A stretch of DNA of 64,000 bases from Candidatus Latescibacterota bacterium (GTDB taxonomy: Bacteria; Latescibacterota; UBA2968; GCA-2709665), in the NCBI GenBank assembly GCA_965248435.1, contig OZ252100.1, positions 1,568,001 to 1,632,000 on the forward strand, given 5' to 3'. Made by a program: the position numbers and the translations under genes. Below the pieces are notes generated by a model. That model searched no databases. It was not told the origin of the DNA and saw nothing but the letters and a program-made list of their open reading frames with translations. Positions 28,490-62,102 of the stretch are shown here, piece by piece (positions within the stretch are counted from its first letter, which is position 1; each line of letters opens with the position of its first letter).

Positions 28490-28772
28490 CGCGTCAGCTC
28501 ACGAACTCACGAATATAATCACACCCCGGGGCCCAAACAAGCCGGGCACCCCCGGATTCGAAGTATGCGTCGGTCATAATACGATCGTGATGAACTCTGA
28601 AATCCCCCTCAGTCCACCTTTTCCAAAGGGGGAAGAATGCGTCTCGTGATCGCCTCCCCCCTTTGTAAAGGTTCATCGTCAAATGTTGGGGGTTAAAGTA
28701 ATGTGCTCTAATTTTGAAACTCGCCGATTCGTGCACAGTCTTGGAACCCGCGAACTGTATCACTCAAGTCCG

Positions 28773-29012
28773 TCAGGGCCACGGTGTGCGACTCCCTTGC
28801 AACCAGGTCCTTTCACCTCCCACGCGGTTAGGCCCTCTGGGCCAGTCCCATAGTGGGCGTCAGGCGAGGCAGGAGTCCCGCCCTGATTGCCGACACCGTC
28901 TTTTCCACTGAGGGTGAGGTGCCGCGGCCGAAGCCTCCCCGGCGTTTGAGGGGCGCCTTTCTTTTGCCTACTTTTCTTGTGGCGAGACAAGAAAAGTAGG
29001 TCGCCGGAGGCA
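28773..29012 (-). mobile_element. Structured non-coding repeat element, copy 1 (240 bp)
   Basis: TCAGGGCC.CGGTGTGCGACTCC ... CCTACTTTTCTTGT-GGCGAG-ACAAGAAAAGTAGG.CGCCGGAGGCA; homologous to four other loci. Confidence 0.8.
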
Positions 29013-29100
29013 TGATGTTGTGAAGTTCGCGATATTACCCACCCCGACCCAGGAGGGGACTGGCGTCTCTCAAACTCGCAAAAGAGATCGTTCGAAGCCA

Positions 29101-29449
29101 TCAGGGCCGCGGTGTGCGACTCCCATGCAACCTCGTTCTTTCACCTCCCACGCGGTTAGGCCCTCTGGGCCGGTCCCACAGTGGACGTCAGGCGGTGCAG
29201 GAGTCCCGCCCTGATTGTCGCCATCGTCCTTTCCACTGAGGGTGAGGTGCCGCGGCCGAAGCCCCCGCGGCGTTTGAGCGGCGCCCTTCTTTTGTCCTCG
29301 GGCGCGGCACAACGCGCCCCTACAGCGAAATCTTGGAGTGTAGGGGCACAGCCGCGCTGTGCCCCAGGGTGGCGGTTGCGGTAGGCCTTTTCTTGGGCGA
29401 GCAAGAAAAGCATGCCCTGAGCCTGCCGAAGGGTAGGCTGCCGGAGGCA
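29101..29449 (-). mobile_element. Structured repeat element, copy 2 (349 bp), with nested GTAG-REP pair and 23-bp micro-element
   Basis: Tandem with copy 1; inserts at ~29300-29365 and 29411-29433. Confidence 0.8.
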
Positions 29450-29576: not shown

Positions 29577-29621
29577 CACATTTATTTTCTGATTCCGAAA
29601 ACACGCCCTTTTGCCTTTCAT

Positions 29622-29652
29622 TCCGCAATCCCAAATCCGCAATCCGCAATTG
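29622..29652 (+). repeat. Heptamer array TCCGCAATCCCAAATCCGCAATCCGCAATTG
   Basis: Identical 31-mers at 34892-34922 and 47821-47851. Confidence 0.85.
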
Positions 29653-29831
29653 TACGGCCGCAGGAGGCACGGGGTTGTTGGATGGGGTAAGTGCTTTAGG
29701 AATTCACCTCGCGGTCCAATGCATGGCATCATCCGAATTCGGAGAAGAGCCACGAAGGAGATGCATCTACCCATACTCCGGCGTCCGGAAGTGATTGAAA
29801 AACATCATAAAGATGTGTACACTGACCTCGG

Positions 29832-34819: not shown

Positions 34820-34922
34820 GGACGGCAGACCACAGACCGCGGACCGCGGCTTTGCCGTCCACGATTCACGATTCACGATTCCCGGTTTTATTCCGCAATC
34901 CCAAATCCGCAATCCGCAATTG
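34820..34922 (+). repeat. Three abutting heptamer arrays (GACCGCG, ACGATTC, TCCGCAA)
   Basis: cagaccacagaccgcggaccgcgg; acgattcacgattcacgattc; tccgcaatcccaaatccgcaatccgcaat. Confidence 0.8.
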
Positions 34923-34941
34923 AATCCCGATCCACGCTCTT

Positions 34942-39855: not shown

Positions 39856-40695
39856 ATGCCATCGCCTGTAATCGATAACCGAGATTGGTCAAAGCTGACC
39901 CTCGGCCAGCGCATCCAGCAGCTCGAGGTCGAAGGCTACTTCGTCCTGCCCAACCTGCTCACGCCGGACCAGATCGCACGCATCAAGGCCCAAACGGCCC
40001 AGCTCCCCACCACCGGCGCCGATTACAGTGTCCACAAACAGGTCTGTTCACACGTCGAATTCACCGGCGGGGCGATCACCGAGCTCGCGGCCCATCCCCC
40101 GACCCTCGCATTCCTGAAGGAGCTCTTCGGAGACGAGATCCTCATCATCTCTTACGACTACCAGCGCTCCGAACCGGGCCACCCCGGTATCAGCCTGCAC
40201 ACCGACGGCCAGCCCTGGGGCTCCAATATTTTCGGCTATGAGGGGACCTGTCCCAAGATCGTCCGCGTGCTCTACTACCTGGACGACCTCACGCAGGACG
40301 TCTCCCCCTTCCGTGTTGTCCCCCGGTCTCACCTCTCGTTCCACGTCGACCGGAATCCCTACACGCGGTATGAATCCCATCCCGAAGAGGTCATGGTCCC
40401 GGCGAAGGCCGGTTCGGCCGTCTTCCTGAACCACTTCACGTTTCACGGCAACTTTCCCAACACCGGCGATCGGTCTCGCGAGCTGCTGGCCATCGCCTAT
40501 CGCCCGGGCTGGGCAGGACCGGTGCAGGAGGTGCCGCGCTGGGACGAATCTGAAGTCGCGAAGCTCCCGGATCACATCCGCCCGCTCTATGGAGACACAA
40601 ACACCCGTCACTGGGACCACGAAGGTGGCAACAAACCGGCCGACATGAAAAACGAAGCACCGGGCATGAATCCGAGCCGTTGGGAGAGAGTCTGA
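39856..40695 (+). CDS. Phytanoyl-CoA dioxygenase (PhyH) family Fe(II)/2OG enzyme, paralog 1
   Basis: EGYFVLPNLL, LHTD, VVPRSH, FHG, SD GGAGG. Confidence 0.88.
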   Translation: MPSPVIDNRDWSKLTLGQRIQQLEVEGYFVLPNLLTPDQIARIKAQTAQLPTTGADYSVHKQVCSHVEFTGGAITELAAHPPTLAFLKELFGDEILIISYDYQRSEPGHPGISLHTDGQPWGSNIFGYEGTCPKIVRVLYYLDDLTQDVSPFRVVPRSHLSFHVDRNPYTRYESHPEEVMVPAKAGSAVFLNHFTFHGNFPNTGDRSRELLAIAYRPGWAGPVQEVPRWDESEVAKLPDHIRPLYGDTNTRHWDHEGGNKPADMKNEAPGMNPSRWERV

Positions 40696-40924
40696 CGGCG
40701 GACTGCAGACCGCAGACCGCGGACGGCAGTGGTAATACAAGGAGCATCGCCCCCGTGTCCCCGAGTGCCCTCTGGCTTACGTATCAACTCTACTCTCACA
40801 AGGGATCTCGCGGGAGTATCGAGGGGCGTGGGATCAGGAAATCGTTACCATTCGACTGCTTTGATGTTTCCGTGCCCTTCCGTGCTTCTTCGTTTCTTTC
40901 CTTATCCAACTTTCTGGAGTCGTT

Positions 40925-41764
40925 ATGTCCAACCCACGCATCGACGACCGCGATTGGTCGAAACTCATGCTGGGTGAGCGCATCCGCCAGATCGAAGTCG
41001 AGGGCTACGTCGTCATCCCCGACCTGCTCTCACCCGATCACCTCGCCCGCCTGAAGTCCATTACGGACAACCTGGAGACTCACCACGTGGACTACAGCGT
41101 TCATCAGCGGGGCGCGCGCGACGTCCAGTGGATCGGCGGGGAACTCACCGAGCTGATCGCCCACCCGCCCACCATCGCCTTCCTCCGCGAGCTGTTCGGC
41201 GACGAGATCATCTTCTCGCACTACAACTACGCCCGTTCCGAGCCCGGTCACCCCGGCATCAGCCTCCACACTGACGGACAGCCGTTCGGCTCCACGATCT
41301 TCGGCTATCTCGGAAGCGTGCCCGCCATGGTCCGCGTCCTCTACTACCTGGACGACCTCACGCCCGAGATCTCCCCGTTCCGCGTCATCCCCCGTTCTCA
41401 CCTCTCCTTCCACGCCGACGGCAATCCCTACCAGCGGTTCGAGGGCCATCCCGAGGAGCTGATGGTCCCTGCAAAGGCCGGCTCCGCCTGCCTGATCAAT
41501 CACCGTGTCTTCCACGGCAACTTCCCGAACGTCGGCGACCAGCCCCGTTCCATGCTCGCCATCGCCTACCGCCCGGGCTGGGCCGGACCACTCGAAGAGG
41601 TCGATTCGTGGGATCCTGAAAAGGTGGCGTCGCTTCCGAACGCCGTGAAACCCTTCTTCAAGGACCGCAACTCCCGCGAGTGGGTCTTCGACGGCGCCAA
41701 CAAACCGGCCGGAATGAAGCGCGAAGCGCCGGGCATGAATCCCAGCCGATGGGAGCGGAAATAA
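40925..41764 (+). CDS. PhyH family Fe(II)/2OG enzyme, paralog 2
   Basis: Same length (279 aa) and motifs as paralog 1; shared tail APGMNPSRWER. Confidence 0.88.
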   Translation: MSNPRIDDRDWSKLMLGERIRQIEVEGYVVIPDLLSPDHLARLKSITDNLETHHVDYSVHQRGARDVQWIGGELTELIAHPPTIAFLRELFGDEIIFSHYNYARSEPGHPGISLHTDGQPFGSTIFGYLGSVPAMVRVLYYLDDLTPEISPFRVIPRSHLSFHADGNPYQRFEGHPEELMVPAKAGSACLINHRVFHGNFPNVGDQPRSMLAIAYRPGWAGPLEEVDSWDPEKVASLPNAVKPFFKDRNSREWVFDGANKPAGMKREAPGMNPSRWERK

Positions 41765-41900
41765 GAACCGACCGCGGACCACAGACCGCGGACCGCAGCA
41801 GCATACAGAATCATAGTCAATCACCGCTTGCCGCAGTCTGTCGACTGCAGACTGAAACCGCCTGGGTTTCCCGCCGTCTGCGGTCTGCCGTCTGCGGTCC
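41765..41900. repeat. Inverted GACCGCG/GACCACA heptamer arrays
   Basis: gaccgcggaccacagaccgcggaccgc ... gccgtctgcggtctgccgtctgcggtcc; relatives at ~32805, ~32930, ~40695. Confidence 0.75.
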
Positions 41901-43974: not shown

Positions 43975-44757
43975 ATGGAAAACGCAAACCCATTCAGAGA
44001 GAAGATCGCAAACGGCGATATCCTGATCGGTCCAGGCATTACCTTCTCCGATCCGACGGTCACCGAGGCCCTCTGCAACACCTTCGACTTCGTCTGGATC
44101 GACATGGAACACAACCCCCTTTCGCTCGAAGCGGTCCAGGGACATATCATTGCGACCCGGAGCAGCGATACGACCGCCCTAGTTCGCGTGACCTGGAACG
44201 ACCCCGCCATCATCAAGCCGGTCCTGGACATCGGCGCGGACGGCGTCATCGTCCCCTGGATTTGCAGCGTCCAGGAGGCCGAACGCGCCGTGAAGGCCTG
44301 TCTCTACCCACCCGAGGGCATCCGCGGCTACGGCCCCCGCCGTCCCTCCCGATACGGCCGTGAAGGGGGCGCGGAATTCTGCAGAAAGGCGAACGAAACC
44401 GTCATCGTCCTGCTTCAGCTCGAACACATCGACGCGATCAACAGCCTGGACGAGATCCTGGACATTCCAGGACTGACCGGGATCACCGTCGGCCCGAACG
44501 ACCTCTCCGGTTCCATGGGTTTAATGGGTCAACCCCAGCACCCCGACGTCGTGAGCGCAATCGAGACCGCCGTCTCAAAGGCACGTCAGAAAGACGTTCT
44601 GATCGGCATGCCGACGTTTGACGCGAACGATGCGATCCGGTGGATCGAAAAGGGCGTGCAGTGGGTCCTCGTCGACGACGACTACGGCCTCCTCACCGCC
44701 TCGGCCGATCAGATCGCAAAGGAAATATCCGACTACACGCGAAACAAAAAACTTTAG
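43975..44757 (+). CDS. HpcH/HpaI class II aldolase, paralog 1
   Basis: WIDMEH, LDIGADG, YPPEGIRG, QLE, GPNDLS. Confidence 0.92.
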   Translation: MENANPFREKIANGDILIGPGITFSDPTVTEALCNTFDFVWIDMEHNPLSLEAVQGHIIATRSSDTTALVRVTWNDPAIIKPVLDIGADGVIVPWICSVQEAERAVKACLYPPEGIRGYGPRRPSRYGREGGAEFCRKANETVIVLLQLEHIDAINSLDEILDIPGLTGITVGPNDLSGSMGLMGQPQHPDVVSAIETAVSKARQKDVLIGMPTFDANDAIRWIEKGVQWVLVDDDYGLLTASADQIAKEISDYTRNKKL

Positions 44758-44838
44758 GCGGCCACACGAAGCTCTTTGCCTTCTCCCCTCTCCCACGTGT
44801 GGGAGAGGGGCCGGGGGTGAGGGCCAACAGGAGAATCC

Positions 44839-45621
44839 ATGAAAAACGCGAACGCATTCAGAGAGAAAATCAAGAACGGAATAATCTGCATAGGCTCGCG
44901 CATCACCTTCACGGATCCGACCGTGACCGAGGCGCTCTGCACTACTCTGGACTATGTCTGGATCGACATGGAGCACACCGCCTTGACCGTCGAATCCGTA
45001 CAGAGCCACATCCTAGCCACGAGAGGCAGCGACACCGCCGCCTTCGTCCGGGTCACCACGAACGATCCCAACCTCATCAAGCCGGTCCTGGACATCGGTG
45101 CCGACAGCGCCATCGTCCCCATGATCCGCAGCGCAGAGGAGGCCGAACGCGCCGTGAAGGCCTGTCTGTATCCTCCGGACGGCATCCGCGGCTTCGGCCC
45201 CCGAAGCCCTTCGGGATACGGCCAGGAAATGGGTGCGGACTTCTGCAAGAGAGCGAACGAAACCGTCATCCCCATGGTCCAGATCGAACACATCGACGCC
45301 ATCAACTGCCTGGACGAAATCCTGGACGTCCCCGGGCTCGCCGCGGTCGAGGTCGCCCCCTACGACCTCTCCGGAACCATGGGACTGATGGCACAGCCGG
45401 ACCATCCCGAGGTCGTCAGCGTCATGGAGTCCGCCATTCAGAAGTCGCGGGAAAAGGGCATCCTCGTCGGCACGACCGCATGGGACGCAGCCGGCGCGAT
45501 CAACTGGATCGAAAAGGGCGCGCAGTGGTTGATGGTGAATGACGACTTCGGCCTGATGCTCATGTCCGCGAACCGGATCGCAAAGGAAATCAGGGACTAC
45601 ACGCAGAAGAAAAACGGTTAG
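44839..45621 (+). CDS. HpcH/HpaI class II aldolase, paralog 2
   Basis: WIDMEH, YPPDGIRG, QIE, APYDLS; same length as paralog 1. Confidence 0.92.
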   Translation: MKNANAFREKIKNGIICIGSRITFTDPTVTEALCTTLDYVWIDMEHTALTVESVQSHILATRGSDTAAFVRVTTNDPNLIKPVLDIGADSAIVPMIRSAEEAERAVKACLYPPDGIRGFGPRSPSGYGQEMGADFCKRANETVIPMVQIEHIDAINCLDEILDVPGLAAVEVAPYDLSGTMGLMAQPDHPEVVSVMESAIQKSREKGILVGTTAWDAAGAINWIEKGAQWLMVNDDFGLMLMSANRIAKEIRDYTQKKNG

Positions 45622-47704: not shown

Positions 47705-47884
47705 ACCCCAATTAGGATTCACAATCAACGATCACTGACCTTAGCCCTTGCCTTGCCATCGCCGCTACCCGATTTTCTCAGCGTATTCTGGGTCTCTGCG
47801 GTCTGATTTTGCGTTTTCTATCCGCAATCCCAAATCCGCAATCCGCAATTGGATGACGATCAACGAGAATCGCGGTTCTGCTCC

Positions 47885-48286: not shown

Positions 48287-50386
48287 TCAGAATTCATTTG
48301 CGACGCGAAGATGCACCTTCCCCTGTCCGGGACTCTCTCCCTTTGCCAGGCCGTAGTCGAGCCCGATCTGACCCATCCGGCTCTCCAGCCGAAGTCCTGC
48401 CCCATAGCCAACCGGCAGCAGCCAGGCGCCTCCCCTGTCGGTACCCGATTCCTTCAAGGCACCCAGATCCGCGAAGAGGAACGCGCGGGATCTCCGCCCC
48501 AGCAGCAGGCGCCACTCCAGATTCATCCACGAAGCCTGTGTCGCCAGGAAGGCCTCCTCTCGGTGCCCGCGAATCGTCGCGCTACCGCCCAGTCGCAGTC
48601 GCGCTTCCGGAGGCACCCGGCCTGACTGCATCACACCCTCCGCGCGAAGCGAGACCGCCGCAACAGATCGCCCGCCTGTCGGAACAAAATGTGCAAGCAG
48701 TACCGCGAACTGCCTCCGCGATCTCCGCACCTCGCCGGTCTCTACTCGGCCCCAGTTGAGCGTCCCTTCGTATCGGGACCCGCCCTTCGGATTCCAGAGG
48801 TCATCGCGTGTATCGTATCTCACCCCGGCCTCCACTCCCCAGAACTGGCTCCCGATAACCCCTTCGAGGTCCCCCTGACCGGGTCTTACACCCTCTCGGC
48901 GCAGCCCTATTCGAAGGTTCAGATCCGGTGTCACCGCAAACGCGGCCGCACCGCCGAGTTCGTTCTCCACAAAACCGACACGCTCACGGACCGACACGTG
49001 AAACTCGCCCGACAGGGGAGTTCCGAAGGCCCAGGGCTCTCGATATCGCAGCTCGAGGTCCGAGGACTCAGGACCCCGACGCCCCCACGAGGCGTGGACC
49101 CCCCGGCCCGTCCCAAGGAAACTCTCGAAATCGAGTGAGAATTGACCCGTCAGGCCGCGGCTTGCGCCAGGGGGACCTGGCGCATACCCCAGACCCCCCT
49201 CTACTCTTCCCGCGCTGCGCTCTCGGACATCGACCACCAGTGCGGTCCGTCCCGGGAGGGAAACGCGATCCAGTCGCGGCGGCTTCACTTCCAGCAGGTA
49301 GGGCAGCCTTCGCAGAGTCTGCACGGCCCGATCCACGCGCCGCTGGTCATAGATCTCGCCCGTCTGGAGCCGCGTCTCGCGCGCGAGCACATCTGCCTTC
49401 GTCGCGCGATTCCCCGCAAAGAGGACCGTGTCGATTCGCACGAGCGGCCCCTCATCGATCTCAACACGCACCTGACTCACGTCGCTCCCAGGTCGGATCA
49501 CAACTTCCGGCCGCAGAGCGCAGTAGGGATATCCCTGATTCTCGTACAGATCGAGAACGGCCTCCAGGTCTGCCTCGAGCCGGTCCGGCAACAGCCGCAC
49601 GCCTGGACGGCTGTGCATCACCTCCATCAACGCGTCACGCGTCAATTGATGATTCCCGGTCAGCTCCACAGATTCGATCCGCGTTGGTTGCCCCTCACGG
49701 ATCGCGAACACGACCGAGGCCCGCCCGCCCGACAGCTTGACCTCCGGCCGGTGAAGCGATACCTGCCAGTAACCCGCCTCCCGGTATCCATCCAGGATCC
49801 GTTCCAAGTCTCGTTCCAGGACGCGCGTATTCAGAGCAGATCCCTGCCGGGTCAGAAGCCACTCCAGCACGCGGCCCTCAGACATCCTGTGCGCCCCCTC
49901 GATCCGCACCCGACGCACGATTTGCCCCTGGGTGGGAGTTTCGCCCCAGCTAGGTGTCTGGCCCAGGATGAGCCCGAGCGCGAGAAAACAGAGGATCATA
50001 ACGGCCCTTCTGATCAGGGCCGCGGTGTGCGACACCCTTGCGCCCAGACCCGTTCCTCCTCCCAAGGGGTTGGGGCCCTCTGTGGGACAGGGTGAGGAGC
50101 GGGGGTGGAGATGTGGGCGAATGGAAATTCGCGGGGCGGGGGCGGGTCCCACGGCGGGCATCAGGCGGGGGGAGGAGACCAAAGCTGGTGCCGAGTCCGC
50201 CCTTGCCACTGAGGGTAAGATGCCGCGGCCCGAGCCCACGCGGCGATTGAGCGGCGCCCTTCTTTTGCCTACTTTTCTTGTGGCGAGACAAGAAAAGTAG
50301 GCCGCCGGAGGCAAGAGGTTCTGGGGTGTGGCGAACAGCTTAGGGATCCAAGAGAGATAGCCACTTTTTTCTCCCAATCTGCTCAT
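48287..50386 (-). CDS. Omp85 (BamA/TamA-like) protein with POTRA domains; repeat copy 3 inside the 5' end; start uncertain (50386 or 49999)
   Basis: POTRA GY motifs, YDTRD, IRG, GYGAGLR, terminal F. Confidence 0.85.
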   Translation of the reverse strand: MSRLGEKSGYLSWIPKLFATPQNLLPPAAYFSCLATRKVGKRRAPLNRRVGSGRGILPSVARADSAPALVSSPRLMPAVGPAPAPRISIRPHLHPRSSPCPTEGPNPLGGGTGLGARVSHTAALIRRAVMILCFLALGLILGQTPSWGETPTQGQIVRRVRIEGAHRMSEGRVLEWLLTRQGSALNTRVLERDLERILDGYREAGYWQVSLHRPEVKLSGGRASVVFAIREGQPTRIESVELTGNHQLTRDALMEVMHSRPGVRLLPDRLEADLEAVLDLYENQGYPYCALRPEVVIRPGSDVSQVRVEIDEGPLVRIDTVLFAGNRATKADVLARETRLQTGEIYDQRRVDRAVQTLRRLPYLLEVKPPRLDRVSLPGRTALVVDVRERSAGRVEGGLGYAPGPPGASRGLTGQFSLDFESFLGTGRGVHASWGRRGPESSDLELRYREPWAFGTPLSGEFHVSVRERVGFVENELGGAAAFAVTPDLNLRIGLRREGVRPGQGDLEGVIGSQFWGVEAGVRYDTRDDLWNPKGGSRYEGTLNWGRVETGEVRRSRRQFAVLLAHFVPTGGRSVAAVSLRAEGVMQSGRVPPEARLRLGGSATIRGHREEAFLATQASWMNLEWRLLLGRRSRAFLFADLGALKESGTDRGGAWLLPVGYGAGLRLESRMGQIGLDYGLAKGESPGQGKVHLRVANEF
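50014..50313 (-). mobile_element. Structured repeat element, copy 3 (300 bp)
   Basis: Same ends and 14-bp hairpin as copies 1/2, plus ~60 bp shared with copy 4. Confidence 0.85.
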
Positions 50387-50415
50387 GCCCTCCCCGAGAT
50401 TCCGTGAATAGCCTT

Positions 50416-53400
50416 TCAAAACGTCGCCCTCATCTCCATCCGTCCCGCGTGAATCACCGGCCGTTCCGGCCGCACCCGCCCATCGTAGGTCGCAAACGCC
50501 GTCAGATATCGCGCCAATCGGTAATCCAGGCCGAGGCGCCAGACAACGTTCTGTCCCTCCCGATTTCCTTCCGCCAACCTGAGGAAGAGGGGCATCTGCC
50601 CCGTACTCGTAACCCTCACCCAGTCCATGCTTCCCCTGATCCGGCCCCGCCCCAGAAGCGCGCGCTGGAGCTCCGGACCTACAGAGAGCCGCCGCGCCTT
50701 GAGGGCACGGAGTTCTTCCTGGTCCCACCCCATCCCCAGACGCAACCCTGTACGCCACCCGCGGTCGATCCGCCAGCGCCCAAGCAAGGAAAAAGCGCTC
50801 GACTCGATCCCGTATGCAAACGGTCCTTCCCCTTCACGACCACGGCGACCACTCGACAGATCGGACTCCAGATCGAATCCCGCTCCGAATCGGAACCGAC
50901 CCCGCGCAGCCAGTTCCGAAAGGTGCGTTTGCCCGTCCTCTGAGAGGTTGCGGTCGAGTCCACTGCGCCGCCTGGAAGTGATCCGGAAGGAAGCCCGGCG
51001 GTTGTATCGGAACAGATGGAGCCTCGCGCGCCGTTCCCTCCCTGCGCTGAAGATCTCAGGGCCGGTCCTGAATCCCGAGAGGTCCCACGGGGCCACCCCG
51101 CTTTCTCCCGGGAAGACCTTCCGCGCCGCCTCCATCGAGAGGTCTACCGAAATCTCAGAAAGGAGACGCTGCCACTGCGCTTCAGGCGATCTCAGGAGAC
51201 GGTGACCGGCAACCTCGAAGCGCAGCCCGAGTGCCGCCTCCCGGACGGGCTGAAACCCGCCCTCGAATCCGTAATAGGGATCGAAGTCGCCGTGTGTGTC
51301 CGGCACGAACTCCTCCCGGTCCTCTTCCCCGTCGCCATCCACGTCTTCCCAGACAAAAGTGCCCTTTCCCTCCCCCACGAAGACAAAAACCGATTCTCGC
51401 CTGGGCGCACCTGTGCTCGAAATCCTGTAGGTGAACTGCTGCGAAAGTGCGCCGCCAAGGGGAGCGTAGGACAGGCGGACGCTCGCCAGATCCGCGTCTC
51501 GTCCTGAGCTGCTCGATGCGAGAAAGCGTGTCCGGCTGTACGCACCCGAGAGTGAAAGCCCCTTCCAGCCTTTCAGGTCTCCACGATTGACGAGCGACCA
51601 GCTCTTCAGGCTGTCCTGCCACGCGCCCTGCAGTCGTCGCGTCTCTTTGATCCCGAGATCGGTCGTCCACGACCACCTCCTGGCGTCGCTCTTGCTCAAC
51701 GTCCAACCCAGCTCCCGGGTCTTCACGCCTTCGGGGGTGTGAGTGCTCCCGATCGGGGAGGCGTAGAAAACGGACGCGTAGGCCGCCGCGTCGCCCAGCG
51801 CCGTCTCGGATTGGAATCGAAAGCCAGGTCGGACGCCCCAGATCTCCCCGGAAACATCGCCGTACTGACGAACCTGCTTACCGCCCCCCCTCGAAATTTC
51901 TTCAAAGCGATAGCCGACCTTCGTGGCGTCTGGACGGGAGAGGTTGAACCCCAACTCTCTTCTCGAGGCCGGATGGATCCCATCCTTGCGTCCATAACCC
52001 ACGTTCATCCTCATCCCCGTGCGCGGCAAGTACTCAAGTGCCATCTCCCCGGACCGTTCGCCCTGCCGTTCCTGTTCCGGGACCCATCCCCACTTCCCCT
52101 CGATATCCACCGGGTCAATTCGATCGAATGTTGAAAACTCCGAACCGATCTGTCGGTAATGCGTGCGCAGACGAACGCGCCCGACCTCGAGTCCTGACAA
52201 CCTCAAAGGGCCTGGTGCGAGATCGGCTCCGAACCGGAAGGCACGCCCGCGTTGATCTTGAGCTCCCGGTTGAAACGCGTCAGCGCTCCCTGAGCTCAGA
52301 CCCACCTCTCCGTTCAGCGTCAGACCCTGGAACGGGGCGTAAGAGGCATCCAGCACCGTCACCTGATGACGGGACACCGTGCCCGGATCACCCCCCGACG
52401 CGGGAATCGGTATCCCTGGCTGATCCGACTCCCTGATGAAGGTCGTCCCGATCTGAACGCGCCCCTCTGAAAGATCAGCTTCGCCCCGCAGCCCCATCAG
52501 CCGGCGCCTATGACCGCCGTGCAGGTACTGATATTCCACTGTAATCCGGGACTCTGCGGAAATCGGCCGAAAGGGCGTGAACGTCAGGAGCCCCCGCTCG
52601 TAGTCCACGACATAGTCCTGCCCTTCACCGCGTTTCAGCTTGCGGCCGTTCAGATAGACGCGCTCCGATCCCGGAACAATCTCCGTGGTGCCGCCCCCTT
52701 CATCACCTCCCGAAAGCCGGTAAGGTCCCTGGTAGCCTTCAACCGGAGCAACGCGGCGGGAAACCCATCGCCCCCTCGATACGGCGCCGAACGCCTTGAC
52801 GGTTCCGTAAGGAAGCGAGAACCCGAGGCTCGCGCCCTGCAGCTGTCTTCGATATCGCCCGAATGTCGTCTCGTTGAACACGACATCCTGATCGCCGAGA
52901 CCCGCATTGATCGATCTGGACCTGACTTGAAAATGGATCCTGTCGATCTCCTGAAGGCTTCGTGTACGGCCGCCGGACTGCAAAGGAAGGTCCTGGTCGG
53001 AAAGCATCGCCAGCAGCTCCACGCCTTCCGCAACCTCTCCCGATACCTGAACGCGGAGCGACTGGCGCAGCTCCGGACCACGGTTTGAGCCCATCGCAAC
53101 CTGAATCCGTTTGCTCCCACCGATCTCCAACCTCGGTTCCCCGACAGACGCCTGAGACCTTACCGTCCGACCGAGGTTGTGTTTGATGCGTTGAGTGCGT
53201 CTGACCGATCGCTGCGTTTCGATCGCCCGCTCGGTGCCCTGACGCCGCCTGTAGACTTGCCGAAGGACTTGAGGCAGCTGCCGGAACTTGACGGTCACTG
53301 GCGTACCCCTCGCAAGGTCCTCGAAAAAGCTCAGCAGGGCCTCGTCTTCCTCTATCAGGTAATCCTTGCCGCGCCGCTGCAGACGTCCCGCCACCCGGAC

Positions 53401-53919
53401 CGACTCGGAGGCATTCAGAATCGGGCGTTCGGAGATGCGGTAGGGACCCCGGCTTCCGTCTGCCTTGAACGTGCGCTCCACATCGAACAGCGTCACCGGC
53501 TTCTGATTTGGCACGTCACATAAACCTGGGTCGGGCATGTAGAGGAGAACGAAGAGAGCAAGGAATCCAGCGATCAGGGCCGCGGTGTGCGACTCCCTTG
53601 CACCTTCATTCCTTCTTCTCCCAAGGGGTTGGGGCCCTCTGTGGGACCGGGTGAGGAGCGGGGGTGGAGGTGCGGGCGAATGGACATTCGCGGGGCGGGT
53701 GCGGGTCCCACAGCGGGCATAAGGTGTTGGGAGGAGTTCAGCCCTTTTGCCGAGCCCGCCTATTCCACTGAGGGTGAGGTGCCGCGGACCGAGCCCCCGC
53801 GGCGCCTGAGCGGCGCCCTTCTTTTGCCTACTTTTCTTGTGGCGAGACAAGAAAAATAGGCCGCCGGGGGTTCGGGGTTCGGTGGAGTAGGGCGAATGCC
53901 TCAAGGATTCAAGAAACAC
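50416..53919 (-). CDS. Large (~1050 aa mature) probable outer-membrane beta-barrel protein; repeat copy 4 inside the 5' end; start uncertain
   Basis: IVPGSERVYLNG..DYVVDYERGLLTF motif, amphipathic strands, C-terminal MEMRATF. Confidence 0.75.
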   Translation of the reverse strand: MFLESLRHSPYSTEPRTPGGLFFLSRHKKSRQKKGAAQAPRGLGPRHLTLSGIGGLGKRAELLPTPYARCGTRTRPANVHSPAPPPPLLTRSHRGPQPLGRRRNEGARESHTAALIAGFLALFVLLYMPDPGLCDVPNQKPVTLFDVERTFKADGSRGPYRISERPILNASESVRVAGRLQRRGKDYLIEEDEALLSFFEDLARGTPVTVKFRQLPQVLRQVYRRRQGTERAIETQRSVRRTQRIKHNLGRTVRSQASVGEPRLEIGGSKRIQVAMGSNRGPELRQSLRVQVSGEVAEGVELLAMLSDQDLPLQSGGRTRSLQEIDRIHFQVRSRSINAGLGDQDVVFNETTFGRYRRQLQGASLGFSLPYGTVKAFGAVSRGRWVSRRVAPVEGYQGPYRLSGGDEGGGTTEIVPGSERVYLNGRKLKRGEGQDYVVDYERGLLTFTPFRPISAESRITVEYQYLHGGHRRRLMGLRGEADLSEGRVQIGTTFIRESDQPGIPIPASGGDPGTVSRHQVTVLDASYAPFQGLTLNGEVGLSSGSADAFQPGAQDQRGRAFRFGADLAPGPLRLSGLEVGRVRLRTHYRQIGSEFSTFDRIDPVDIEGKWGWVPEQERQGERSGEMALEYLPRTGMRMNVGYGRKDGIHPASRRELGFNLSRPDATKVGYRFEEISRGGGKQVRQYGDVSGEIWGVRPGFRFQSETALGDAAAYASVFYASPIGSTHTPEGVKTRELGWTLSKSDARRWSWTTDLGIKETRRLQGAWQDSLKSWSLVNRGDLKGWKGLSLSGAYSRTRFLASSSSGRDADLASVRLSYAPLGGALSQQFTYRISSTGAPRRESVFVFVGEGKGTFVWEDVDGDGEEDREEFVPDTHGDFDPYYGFEGGFQPVREAALGLRFEVAGHRLLRSPEAQWQRLLSEISVDLSMEAARKVFPGESGVAPWDLSGFRTGPEIFSAGRERRARLHLFRYNRRASFRITSRRRSGLDRNLSEDGQTHLSELAARGRFRFGAGFDLESDLSSGRRGREGEGPFAYGIESSAFSLLGRWRIDRGWRTGLRLGMGWDQEELRALKARRLSVGPELQRALLGRGRIRGSMDWVRVTSTGQMPLFLRLAEGNREGQNVVWRLGLDYRLARYLTAFATYDGRVRPERPVIHAGRMEMRATF
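53574..53872 (-). mobile_element. Structured repeat element, copy 4 (~299 bp)
   Basis: Colinear with copy 3 over its whole length. Confidence 0.85.
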
Positions 53920-54054
53920 GACTGTTTTTTCTCCGAAAACGAAGGACTGCTTGTCGTCAATCACGTGGCAATAGGACTCCGTGGCCTTTTCGAACGACGA
54001 ATCGGTCGTGTCCCACAGGACACGACCTGAGACGAACGACGGTTGCCGTCACCA

Positions 54055-61765: not shown

Positions 61766-61915
61766 GGATGAAATCGGCTGGTAGGGAGGTTATTGGAAGG
61801 TTTTAGCCAGATGTTAGGGCCAAGGCTATAAGCGTTGTTGTAGAACACACCGACTTAACGATTATACGCATACTGGGGCCGATCCTGGGATTTTTCCCGA
61901 AATCGCGCAAAACGA

Positions 61916-62102
61916 TCAGGGCCGCGGTGTGCGACTCCTATGCAACCACCTGATGAACGTATCTCGTATCTCGTGAAGCGTATCTCGTCCGAGGTATCTT
62001 GCAAGTTCACTACTCGAGGTGTCGACGAGTTCTGGTGAGCTCCGGTGTTGGCCAGATACGAGATGCGAAATACGAGATACGGGTTTCCGGCCGCCGGAGG
62101 CA
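61916..62102 (-). mobile_element. Structured repeat element, copy 5 (187 bp): conserved ends, interior replaced by TATCTCG/CGAGATA inverted heptamers
   Basis: TCAGGGCCGCGGTGTGCGACTCC ... GGCCGCCGGAGGCA. Confidence 0.75.

Follow-up and report, generated by a model that had tools for sequence, protein, structure and literature searches.

In a Candidatus Latescibacterota bacterium, two adjacent, conserved outer-membrane genes carry copies of one dispersed, hairpin-rich repeat directly in front of their signal-peptide hydrophobic cores, at the place where relatives have an ordinary start codon and n-region. The genes lie on the minus strand of a 64,000-nt stretch of contig OZ252100.1 (assembly GCA_965248435.1, positions 1,568,001 to 1,632,000), hereafter the window, and positions below are those of the window unless contig positions are stated. 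The element is of an ordinary kind, a truncated intergenic repeat borne by transposable elements of the miniature inverted-repeat kind (MITEs), in an uncommon position. We give roughly even chances to the full account, according to which MITE-borne copies were truncated within the two leaders and both genes now start from element sequence.

The downstream gene (48287..50035, minus strand) encodes an Omp85/POTRA protein (Pfam POTRA, 1.4e-29; Omp85, 8.5e-13). Upstream of it lies a conserved partner of 1039 aa, referred to here as the barrel (50416..53572, minus strand), which includes the hydrophobic core IAGFLALFVLLY and ends in ...RATF; a Pfam search assigned this protein to no family. Barrel orthologues were found in all 31 related genomes searched, and homologues with 40–51% identity are labelled Latescibacteria in three records and Gemmatimonadota in one. 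In a genome of the same genus (the sister genome), the barrel adjoins the Omp85 gene as well.

Element copies and empty sites

Copy 1, in front of the Omp85 gene (50013..50415, minus strand), consists of the 5′ end of a carrier (AAGGCTATTCACGG...), followed by a 5′ module and then by a structured unit of type I that ends in a core hairpin. Copy 2, in front of the barrel (53573..53988, minus strand, 5′ limit approximate), has the same parts, its 5′ carrier end being degenerate and its unit again of type I. The two copies, 84.3% identical in BLAST over 344 nt (86% over 274 ungapped nt), stop at the identical nucleotide, directly after ...GGCCCTGAT (last base 50013 and 53573); the next codons after each are those of the signal-peptide hydrophobic core. 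The core motif GTCGCACACCGCGGCCCTGAT, at 50013..50033 in copy 1 and 53573..53593 in copy 2 (both minus strand), forms a short hairpin, GTCGC-ACACC-GCGGC, recurrent in single-sequence folds. Hairpin 1 lies at 50267..50302 in copy 1, where its 15-nt arms are 100% complementary, and at 53826..53861 in copy 2 (both minus strand). Copy 1 begins at the base right after the barrel stop codon (50415), and its 116-nt 5′ part matches three other loci at 87%. The original prediction, made from the letters of the window, had placed an element of about 300 bp just before both hydrophobic cores. Its placement and quoted translations are exact; the repeated DNA is longer than predicted, running from 50415 to 50013 and from about 53988 to 53573.

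Comparison of the copies shows that the 3′ module of ~105 nt and the 3′ inverted end are missing from both window copies, an inverted-repeat search gave no terminal inverted repeat within either, and for this reason we conclude that both are 3′-truncated repeat copies. Repeat DNA makes up most of the stretch that leads from the terminator of the upstream gene to the barrel hydrophobic core. One separate hairpin repeat there, between copy 2 and the NHL-repeat gene upstream, is GGTCGTGTCC-TGTG-GGACACGACC (54004..54027), a perfect 10-bp hairpin within a ~50-nt repeat that has 11 further genome matches of 29–52 nt.

We compared the locus with orthologues lacking the element, as the original prediction had proposed. 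The same-genus genome is empty at both sites and has ordinary ATG starts: the Omp85 gene follows a 50-nt spacer after the barrel stop and begins ATG-MKRIARYTMQRKMVLTLCG... (MKRIARYTMQRK...), and the barrel begins ATG-MARRSPDRRLAFLLLL... (MARRSPDRR...). A start codon, a short n-region and a hydrophobic core were present at 19 of 20 orthologous barrel loci; the twentieth matched only from residue 38. In the window the hydrophobic cores of both proteins align with those of their orthologues, and the start and n-region are replaced by element sequence. The native barrel start and the n-region RRSPDRR have no counterpart there; for Omp85, the RR of the n-region survives right after the junction.

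The junction between gene and element is bridged without gaps by two contigs from other studies (X12 record 13, 53283-53740; X7 record 29, 52973-53626). A metagenome scan for closer strains returned two relatives only, at 27–29% identity; metagenome contigs break at repeats, and the joints inside the elements (53596 to 53795, 53622 to 53769 and 50064 to 50197) are not assignable to this locus. A 96%-identical strain (protein P0002) keeps the barrel and carries a 72-residue (216-nt) in-frame deletion inside the element, flanked by two CATTCGCCC repeats as read from the sequence.

The barrel might be a decaying gene, inactivated by the loss of its start, as the lack of a canonical start near its hydrophobic core would suggest. 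However, the 1039-codon frame is intact both here and in the 96%-identical strain, and the gene is kept throughout the 31 relatives, beside Omp85 in the same-genus genome. Among the 40 best-supported population differences, 37 fall in the barrel, and 23 of these natural variants (counted by hand) are at third codon positions, where one third would be expected. We conclude from this third-position excess that the barrel gene is under constraint, and we consider its decay very unlikely.

Reading frames and start codons

The frames of both genes are stop-free through the whole element, and they meet in the common SHTAALI junction that had been predicted; the translation reads ...MSRLGEKSGYLSWIPKLFATPQNL...ARVSHTAALIRRAVMILCFLALGLILG for Omp85 and ...VFLESLRHSPYSTEPRT...ARESHTAALIAGFLALFVLLYMPDPG for the barrel. 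Most of each copy is read in a frame different from that used in the other (...GGLFFLSRHKKSRQKKGAAQ... in the barrel versus ...PPAAYFSCLATRKVGKRRAPL... in Omp85), and SHTAALI, the last 7 codons, is all that the two gene frames have in common. That they are in register only over these codons is due to a 1-nt length difference, 25 versus 24 nt, between GGGAG and the core. Because the two copies use different frames, the element encodes no conserved peptide, and the suggested analogy with Rickettsia palindromic elements (RPEs), which do encode one, does not carry over.

Two in-frame start codons lie within the Omp85 copy, GTG 50035 and TTG 50065. The candidate GTG (50035..50033, minus strand) is inside the element core and would give the product MSHTAALIRRAVMILCF..., which has a textbook n-region. 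The 21-nt core occurs in 71 copies in the 5.67-Mb genome (≤3 mismatches). Its position -1, which lay outside the search pattern, is A in 70 copies and T in the Omp85 copy only, and this T makes the in-frame GTG. Since a substitution unique among 71 copies creates the codon, the last 7 element codons are plausibly translated as the n-region of the Omp85 signal peptide. As far as sequence can tell, GTG 50035 is most likely a start re-created after the native one was lost, and element sequence is likely used for Omp85 translation. The gene call on record (P0122, 710 aa) begins further upstream, at ATG 50386, and about 150 of its residues are translated repeat. This ATG, which the original prediction had taken as the Omp85 start, lies within repeat DNA of which there are 4 copies. 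Contigs from three other studies have a joint from 50312 to 50391 that skips the 78 nt (50313-50390) containing it, and on account of this skip we disfavour it.

The other candidate, ATG 49999 (49999..49997, minus strand), is just past the element, 12 codons downstream of GTG 50035, and would give MILCF.... It is the Omp85 start expected if both insertions were purely intergenic and the in-frame reading a coincidence, with the barrel beginning at some start past its own copy. In agreement with this explanation, AAGG starts at -10 from ATG 49999 in a genome that uses Shine-Dalgarno (SD) sites, SD-like 4-mers peaking at -11 upstream of called starts genome-wide; open frames are common in the element, and ATG 50386 is itself repeat DNA that other studies' contigs skip. 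Yet the MILCF... signal peptide has no charged n-region, the unique A-to-T change at GTG 50035 is left unexplained, and the only canonical codon past the element in the barrel is ATG 53538, which sits downstream of the hydrophobic core and is L in the 96%-identical strain. We regard purely intergenic insertion as distinctly unlikely.

For the barrel, the in-frame ATG, GTG or TTG codons upstream of the hydrophobic core are GTG 53964, GTG 53919 and two TTGs, one five codons after GTG 53919 and one in hairpin 1, 104 codons before ATG 53538. None occurs within the last 104 codons before ATG 53538, as the original prediction had noted for ATG and GTG between element and hydrophobic core. P0002 shows the same junction as the window barrel (...ARESHIAALIAG...), and a 1110-aa gene call in a related strain reads through repeat DNA. 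Judged from the sequence, barrel translation must cross the element or start non-canonically, so that element sequence would be necessary in some form. Of the three ways out that had been offered, these two stand, given that no canonical start is near; the third, RNA processing, found no support (see below). Our best guess is read-through from the candidate GTG at 53917..53919 (minus strand), which is in frame 127 codons before ATG 53538 and has GGAG starting at -15.

Alternatively, the barrel could start at the junction itself, at CTG (53577..53575) or ATC (53574..53572), by restart after an out-of-frame 11-codon mini-open reading frame (mini-ORF; ATG AAG GTG ... CCC TGA, 53574..53609, minus strand). 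The precursor would then be (M)IAGFLALFVLLY..., and the element would serve as a ribosome-loading site only. The mini-ORF, whose function is putative, has GGAG starting at -12 from its ATG, near the genomic optimum of -11, and its TGA overlaps the junction ATC codon (cTGATC); CTG and ATC are both start codons in NCBI table 11, and the protein of the 96%-identical strain, ...NEGARESH..., is compatible with the same AATGAAGG stretch. On the other hand, the junction codons have no SD at working distance (GGAG at -19 and -22), the resulting signal peptide would lack the charged n-region of most of the 20 orthologues, and nothing equivalent to the mini-ORF exists in the Omp85 copy. In the bacteria studied, AUC and CUG are moreover very weak initiation codons. 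We rank read-through above a junction restart because the restart codons are non-canonical and the resulting n-region is uncharged, and we consider the restart unlikely. We also considered, and rejected, a frameshift of -1 or +1 that would take ribosomes out of the mini-ORF and into the frame of the barrel, no slippery site being seen. A sequencing error in the barrel leader is unlikely, as the same frame is found in the independent 96%-identical strain.

The repeat family and its carriers

On a crude gene map based on codon usage (4187 genes, 82% coverage), 70 of the 71 cores fall between genes; the remaining one belongs to the Omp85 copy, inside which the map calls a start. Only the window pair abuts a hydrophobic stretch (2/71), and the other 69 cores continue into a further repeat module (consensus GG.TTtgAGCGAT...) or into non-coding DNA. 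This genome-wide count lends no support to the proposal that the element uses signal-peptide n-regions as safe havens. Of the copies, 32 (33 if that of Omp85 is counted) have the next gene in the same direction as the core and 38 in the opposite one, so the orientation of the core to the next gene is about random.

A left anchor could be paired with a core in 26 cases, involving 25 distinct left anchors, and the resulting units sort by length into three classes of ~316, 257 and 244 nt, which share the 5′ part (hairpin 1, GGCAAAAGAAGGGCGCC..., hairpin 2) and the 3′ core hairpin and differ in their centres. Both window copies belong to the 316-nt class. Variants of the hairpin 1 arms keep their pairing by eye (CCTAC/GTAGG, TCTAC/GTAGA, TCACC/GGTGA, CCAAC/GTTGG, CCCAC/GTGGG), and in hairpin 2 one pair swaps GC for CG in all three classes, a compensatory change. 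Of 31 genomes, 19 (this one included) contain parts of the unit, and these represent four of the six genera sampled; in other genera a variant of the unit is closed by a GGGGCTGCTTTTCCGCG...CGCGGAAAAGCCCC helix. Elsewhere in the window lie a type II-centre unit of the family (28772..29030, minus strand), a partial tandem neighbour with its core at 29100-29120, and a core-only copy (61915..61935, minus strand) preceded by GAGATAC repeats.

In some units a ~110-nt insert separates the left end from hairpin 1 (for example at contig 4956200-4956330 and 4983480-4983600). On the opposite strand the insert resembles a protein fragment, ...VQKPVGIDFVIIHGEFVIEDSEPTGG..., which suggests that flanking gene pieces were copied along with the unit.

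The structure of the unit raises the question of an RNA-level function: it might excise itself in the manner of an intron, or regulate envelope genes as their leader. The unit is rich in hairpins with some compensatory changes, its sense strand folds with a z-score of -2.15, and an SD-like GGGAGRAG pairs with CUCCUCCC inside it. However, the antisense strand folds about equally well (z = -1.77, with lower energy in 22 of 26 units), and neither the alignment nor the single-sequence folds favour the sense strand. Rfam searches came back empty; the window was scanned with gathering thresholds, the Omp85 copy with E≤10 and five loci with E≤1. The 32-to-38 orientation split, the 69 of 71 copies away from gene starts and the retention of the gene in the 216-nt deletion variant also argue against such a function. 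We rejected a cis-regulatory leader or riboswitch, as neither position nor orientation is constant, and likewise a self-splicing intron, for which Rfam gave no group I or II match and whose 5′ “exon” flanks would be repeat DNA instead of unique exon junctions. The switch or intron envisaged in the original prediction is thus scarcely probable.

A replication-strand bias was examined and dismissed. In the raw count 58 of 71 cores are on the leading strand; after merging neighbours this becomes 33 of 46 loci (versus a gene bias of 63%, p=0.28), and at 20-kb merging 21 of 31. The sister genome has 13 of 23 cores on the leading strand (hand count, with dnaA as origin and the opposite point as terminus). 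As the bias does not differ from that of genes after merging, we make no claim of single-strand transposition. A promoter scan, which is not informative for this lineage, found 0 sigma-70-like sites, and the literature library searched has no paper pairing “Latescibacterota” with “MITE”.

The carriers of the unit are recognizable in both genomes. In the sister genome the 316-nt class sits within a ~590-nt element with inverted ends CCTGAATAATTCAT.../...ATGAATTATTCAGG, and the flanking 4-mers are duplicated in most copies by eye (among them CTAG, TTAG, CTAC, ATAA, CTAA, TTAA, TATA). The same ends bound three 1.7-kb insertion sequence (IS) copies in the genome of the window (contig 3033646-3035343, 4240218-4241914 and 5353677-5355373), whose transposase matches DDE_Tnp_1_4 at 1e-157; size, ends and duplication would fit the IS1380 family. 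The carrier in the genome of the window is represented by 7 paired ends, 390–631 nt apart and beginning AAGGYTCTTCRCC.AAT (inverted ends AAGGYTCTTC...), with exact 4-bp duplications (TCCA, TGGA, TACA) in 3 of the 7 pairs; examples lie at contig 3944946-3945378, 3999160-3999604 and 4703473-4703898. In 5 of the 7 pairs CCCCCTTT precedes the element and AAAGGGGG follows it, as if it had been inserted in a hairpin loop, and the CCCCCTTT-NNNN-AAAGGGGG hairpin is itself a dispersed repeat. We conclude that the structured unit is the cargo of two unrelated MITE carriers.

Proposed origin of the fusions and comparison with known systems

From the anatomy of the copies, their numbers, the empty sites, the frames and the unique substitution, we infer the following order of events and start codons. 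A non-coding, hairpin-rich unit of ~250–320 nt, with a conserved 5′ part, alternative centres and a 3′ core hairpin, would have spread as cargo of MITE carriers, and the leaders of the two neighbouring, conserved outer-membrane genes would each have received a copy. Each copy would then have lost everything 3′ of its core hairpin, together with the native ribosome site, the start codon and part or all of the n-region. The genes may have survived because the end of the element reads S-H-T-A-A-L-I in the gene frame and feeds into the hydrophobic core. The new GTG in the core would be the Omp85 start (MSHTAALIRR...), with the ATG 12 codons downstream as second choice. The barrel would be read from the element-borne GTG 53919 through the whole element, yielding a basic pre-sequence that reaches the hydrophobic core after 115 residues and would stay cytoplasmic and be removed with the signal peptide; the read-through peptides would include ...FLESLRHSP... 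and ...GRRRNEGARESH....

Several observations weigh against this account. The openness of frames across the element is near chance: two of its three frames are open almost always, and 11 of 21 frame-by-copy combinations are stop-free (7 type I copies of this genome), so that both gene frames would be expected to be open in about a quarter of cases. Composition shuffles leave ~10% open per frame; the 20 sister-genome copies are mostly closed and, being close kin, were weighed less. The caution in the original prediction that open frames are weak evidence was well placed. The SD distance of GTG 53919 (-15) is in the tail of the genomic distribution, and it is unusual for a cleavable hydrophobic core to follow a pre-sequence of ~115 residues. 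GTG 50035 has no SD at the usual distance, whereas ATG 49999 has one. A 216-nt deletion between two CATTCGCCC repeats would be in frame with a 1-in-3 chance, and none of the RNA runs checked for the region contains it. The search for an autonomous IS with matching ends covered the sister-genome carrier, for which one was found. Finally, that both copies were independently truncated at one and the same nucleotide is not what random deletion would lead one to expect.

The identical cut may have arisen in either of two ways. The end of the core may be a real recombination or cleavage point of the unit, or else only such fusions may survive, ...GCG GCC CTG ATC reading A-A-L-I and extending the hydrophobic core. 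A bolder reading makes the unit a structured cassette, one that enters unrelated carriers by invasion or recruitment, has the core hairpin as breakpoint and donates a ribosome site, a start and a basic n-region, the barrel having a ~115-residue element-encoded, cleaved pre-sequence. We consider this improbable; if true, the unit would be a portable “front end” for secreted proteins.

Bacterial MITEs such as Correia, ERIC and BOX are the closest comparison, being likewise small, non-coding, multi-copy, intergenic and hairpin-rich. The elements described here are small and multi-copy and have no transposase of their own (390–631 nt carriers; 71 cores), and inverted ends and target duplications are found on their carriers. 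The review PMC10969869 describes MITE-like elements that donate promoters or form in-frame fusions. Unlike MITEs, the window copies are 3′-truncated and lack inverted ends of their own, so that no target-site duplication is possible there; one structured unit is found in two unrelated carriers, and the native start codon itself is replaced. RPEs are similar in that the repeat is read in frame with its host gene, and 44 in-frame integrations in R. conorii are reported in the same review (PMC10969869). However, RPEs encode a conserved peptide and are often intragenic, whereas here 7 residues are shared and 2 of 71 copies touch a gene.

Repetitive extragenic palindromes (REPs), bacterial interspersed mosaic elements (BIMEs) and elements derived from IS200/IS605 also resemble the unit, in that a ~30-nt imperfect palindrome (here the core) is reused in mosaic contexts, and the genome has Y1 transposase genes. 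Free-standing IS605 stem-loops linked to lipoprotein genes are reported for Borrelia (PMC2775950). In the unit described here, the left and right hairpins are unrelated in sequence. A system of REP and REP-associated tyrosine transposase (RAYT) was rejected: the four Y1 loci examined, three in this genome and one in the sister genome, have repeats of other kinds beside the transposase gene and no core-like motif at ≤5 mismatches. The TnpB/omega-RNA system was rejected as well, with 0 matches to PF07282 in this and the sister genome and no Rfam match; IscB was not searched separately.

Integron arrays without an integrase (clusters of attC sites lacking integron-integrases, CALIN) invite comparison with one further region. 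At contig 4956700-5037560, 23 cores, all on the plus strand, are interleaved with 1–3-kb gene blocks pointing both ways, and a 92-aa C-terminal remnant of a tyrosine recombinase (minus strand, 4954353-4954631) lies just before the first core of the array. The region looks like a degenerate cassette array. It differs from CALIN in its mosaic repeats of 250–500 nt, as against attC sites of 60–140 nt, and in genes that point both ways. For the window copies an integron reading was rejected, the best match to the integron integrase family TIGR02249 reaching 104 bits against a cut-off of 265 and no attC-like architecture being apparent. GCCTAAC occurs in the type II centre; its partner GTTAGGC was not seen by eye (R″/R′ boxes RYYYAAC ... 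GTTRRRY). A short repeat with CCGCAATCCCAAATCCGCAATCCGCAATTG is found beside units in this array (4.96-5.03 Mb) and in the window at 29613-29666, 34883-34936 and 47812-47865.

Two further kinds of repeated sequence were observed. The window contains two pairs of 300-nt direct repeats with 74–75% identity, spaced 1069 and 864 nt (40052-41798 and 43975-45138), which are probably tandem paralogous genes. A gene for a 314-aa tyrosine recombinase is present in six near-identical copies (contig 1448658-1449452 and five other loci) and is probably part of another mobile element.

For annotation, the locus is a warning that gene calls can read through repeat DNA, as do those of 710 aa for Omp85 and 1110 aa for the related strain. 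When a repeat lands at the start of a gene, the usual outcome is an added promoter or a dead gene; here, the native start regions of two conserved genes of envelope biogenesis seem to have given way to a repeat, and yet the genes stay constrained. The pair would thus constitute a natural experiment on how much of the front end of a signal peptide is replaceable and how a start codon is re-created.

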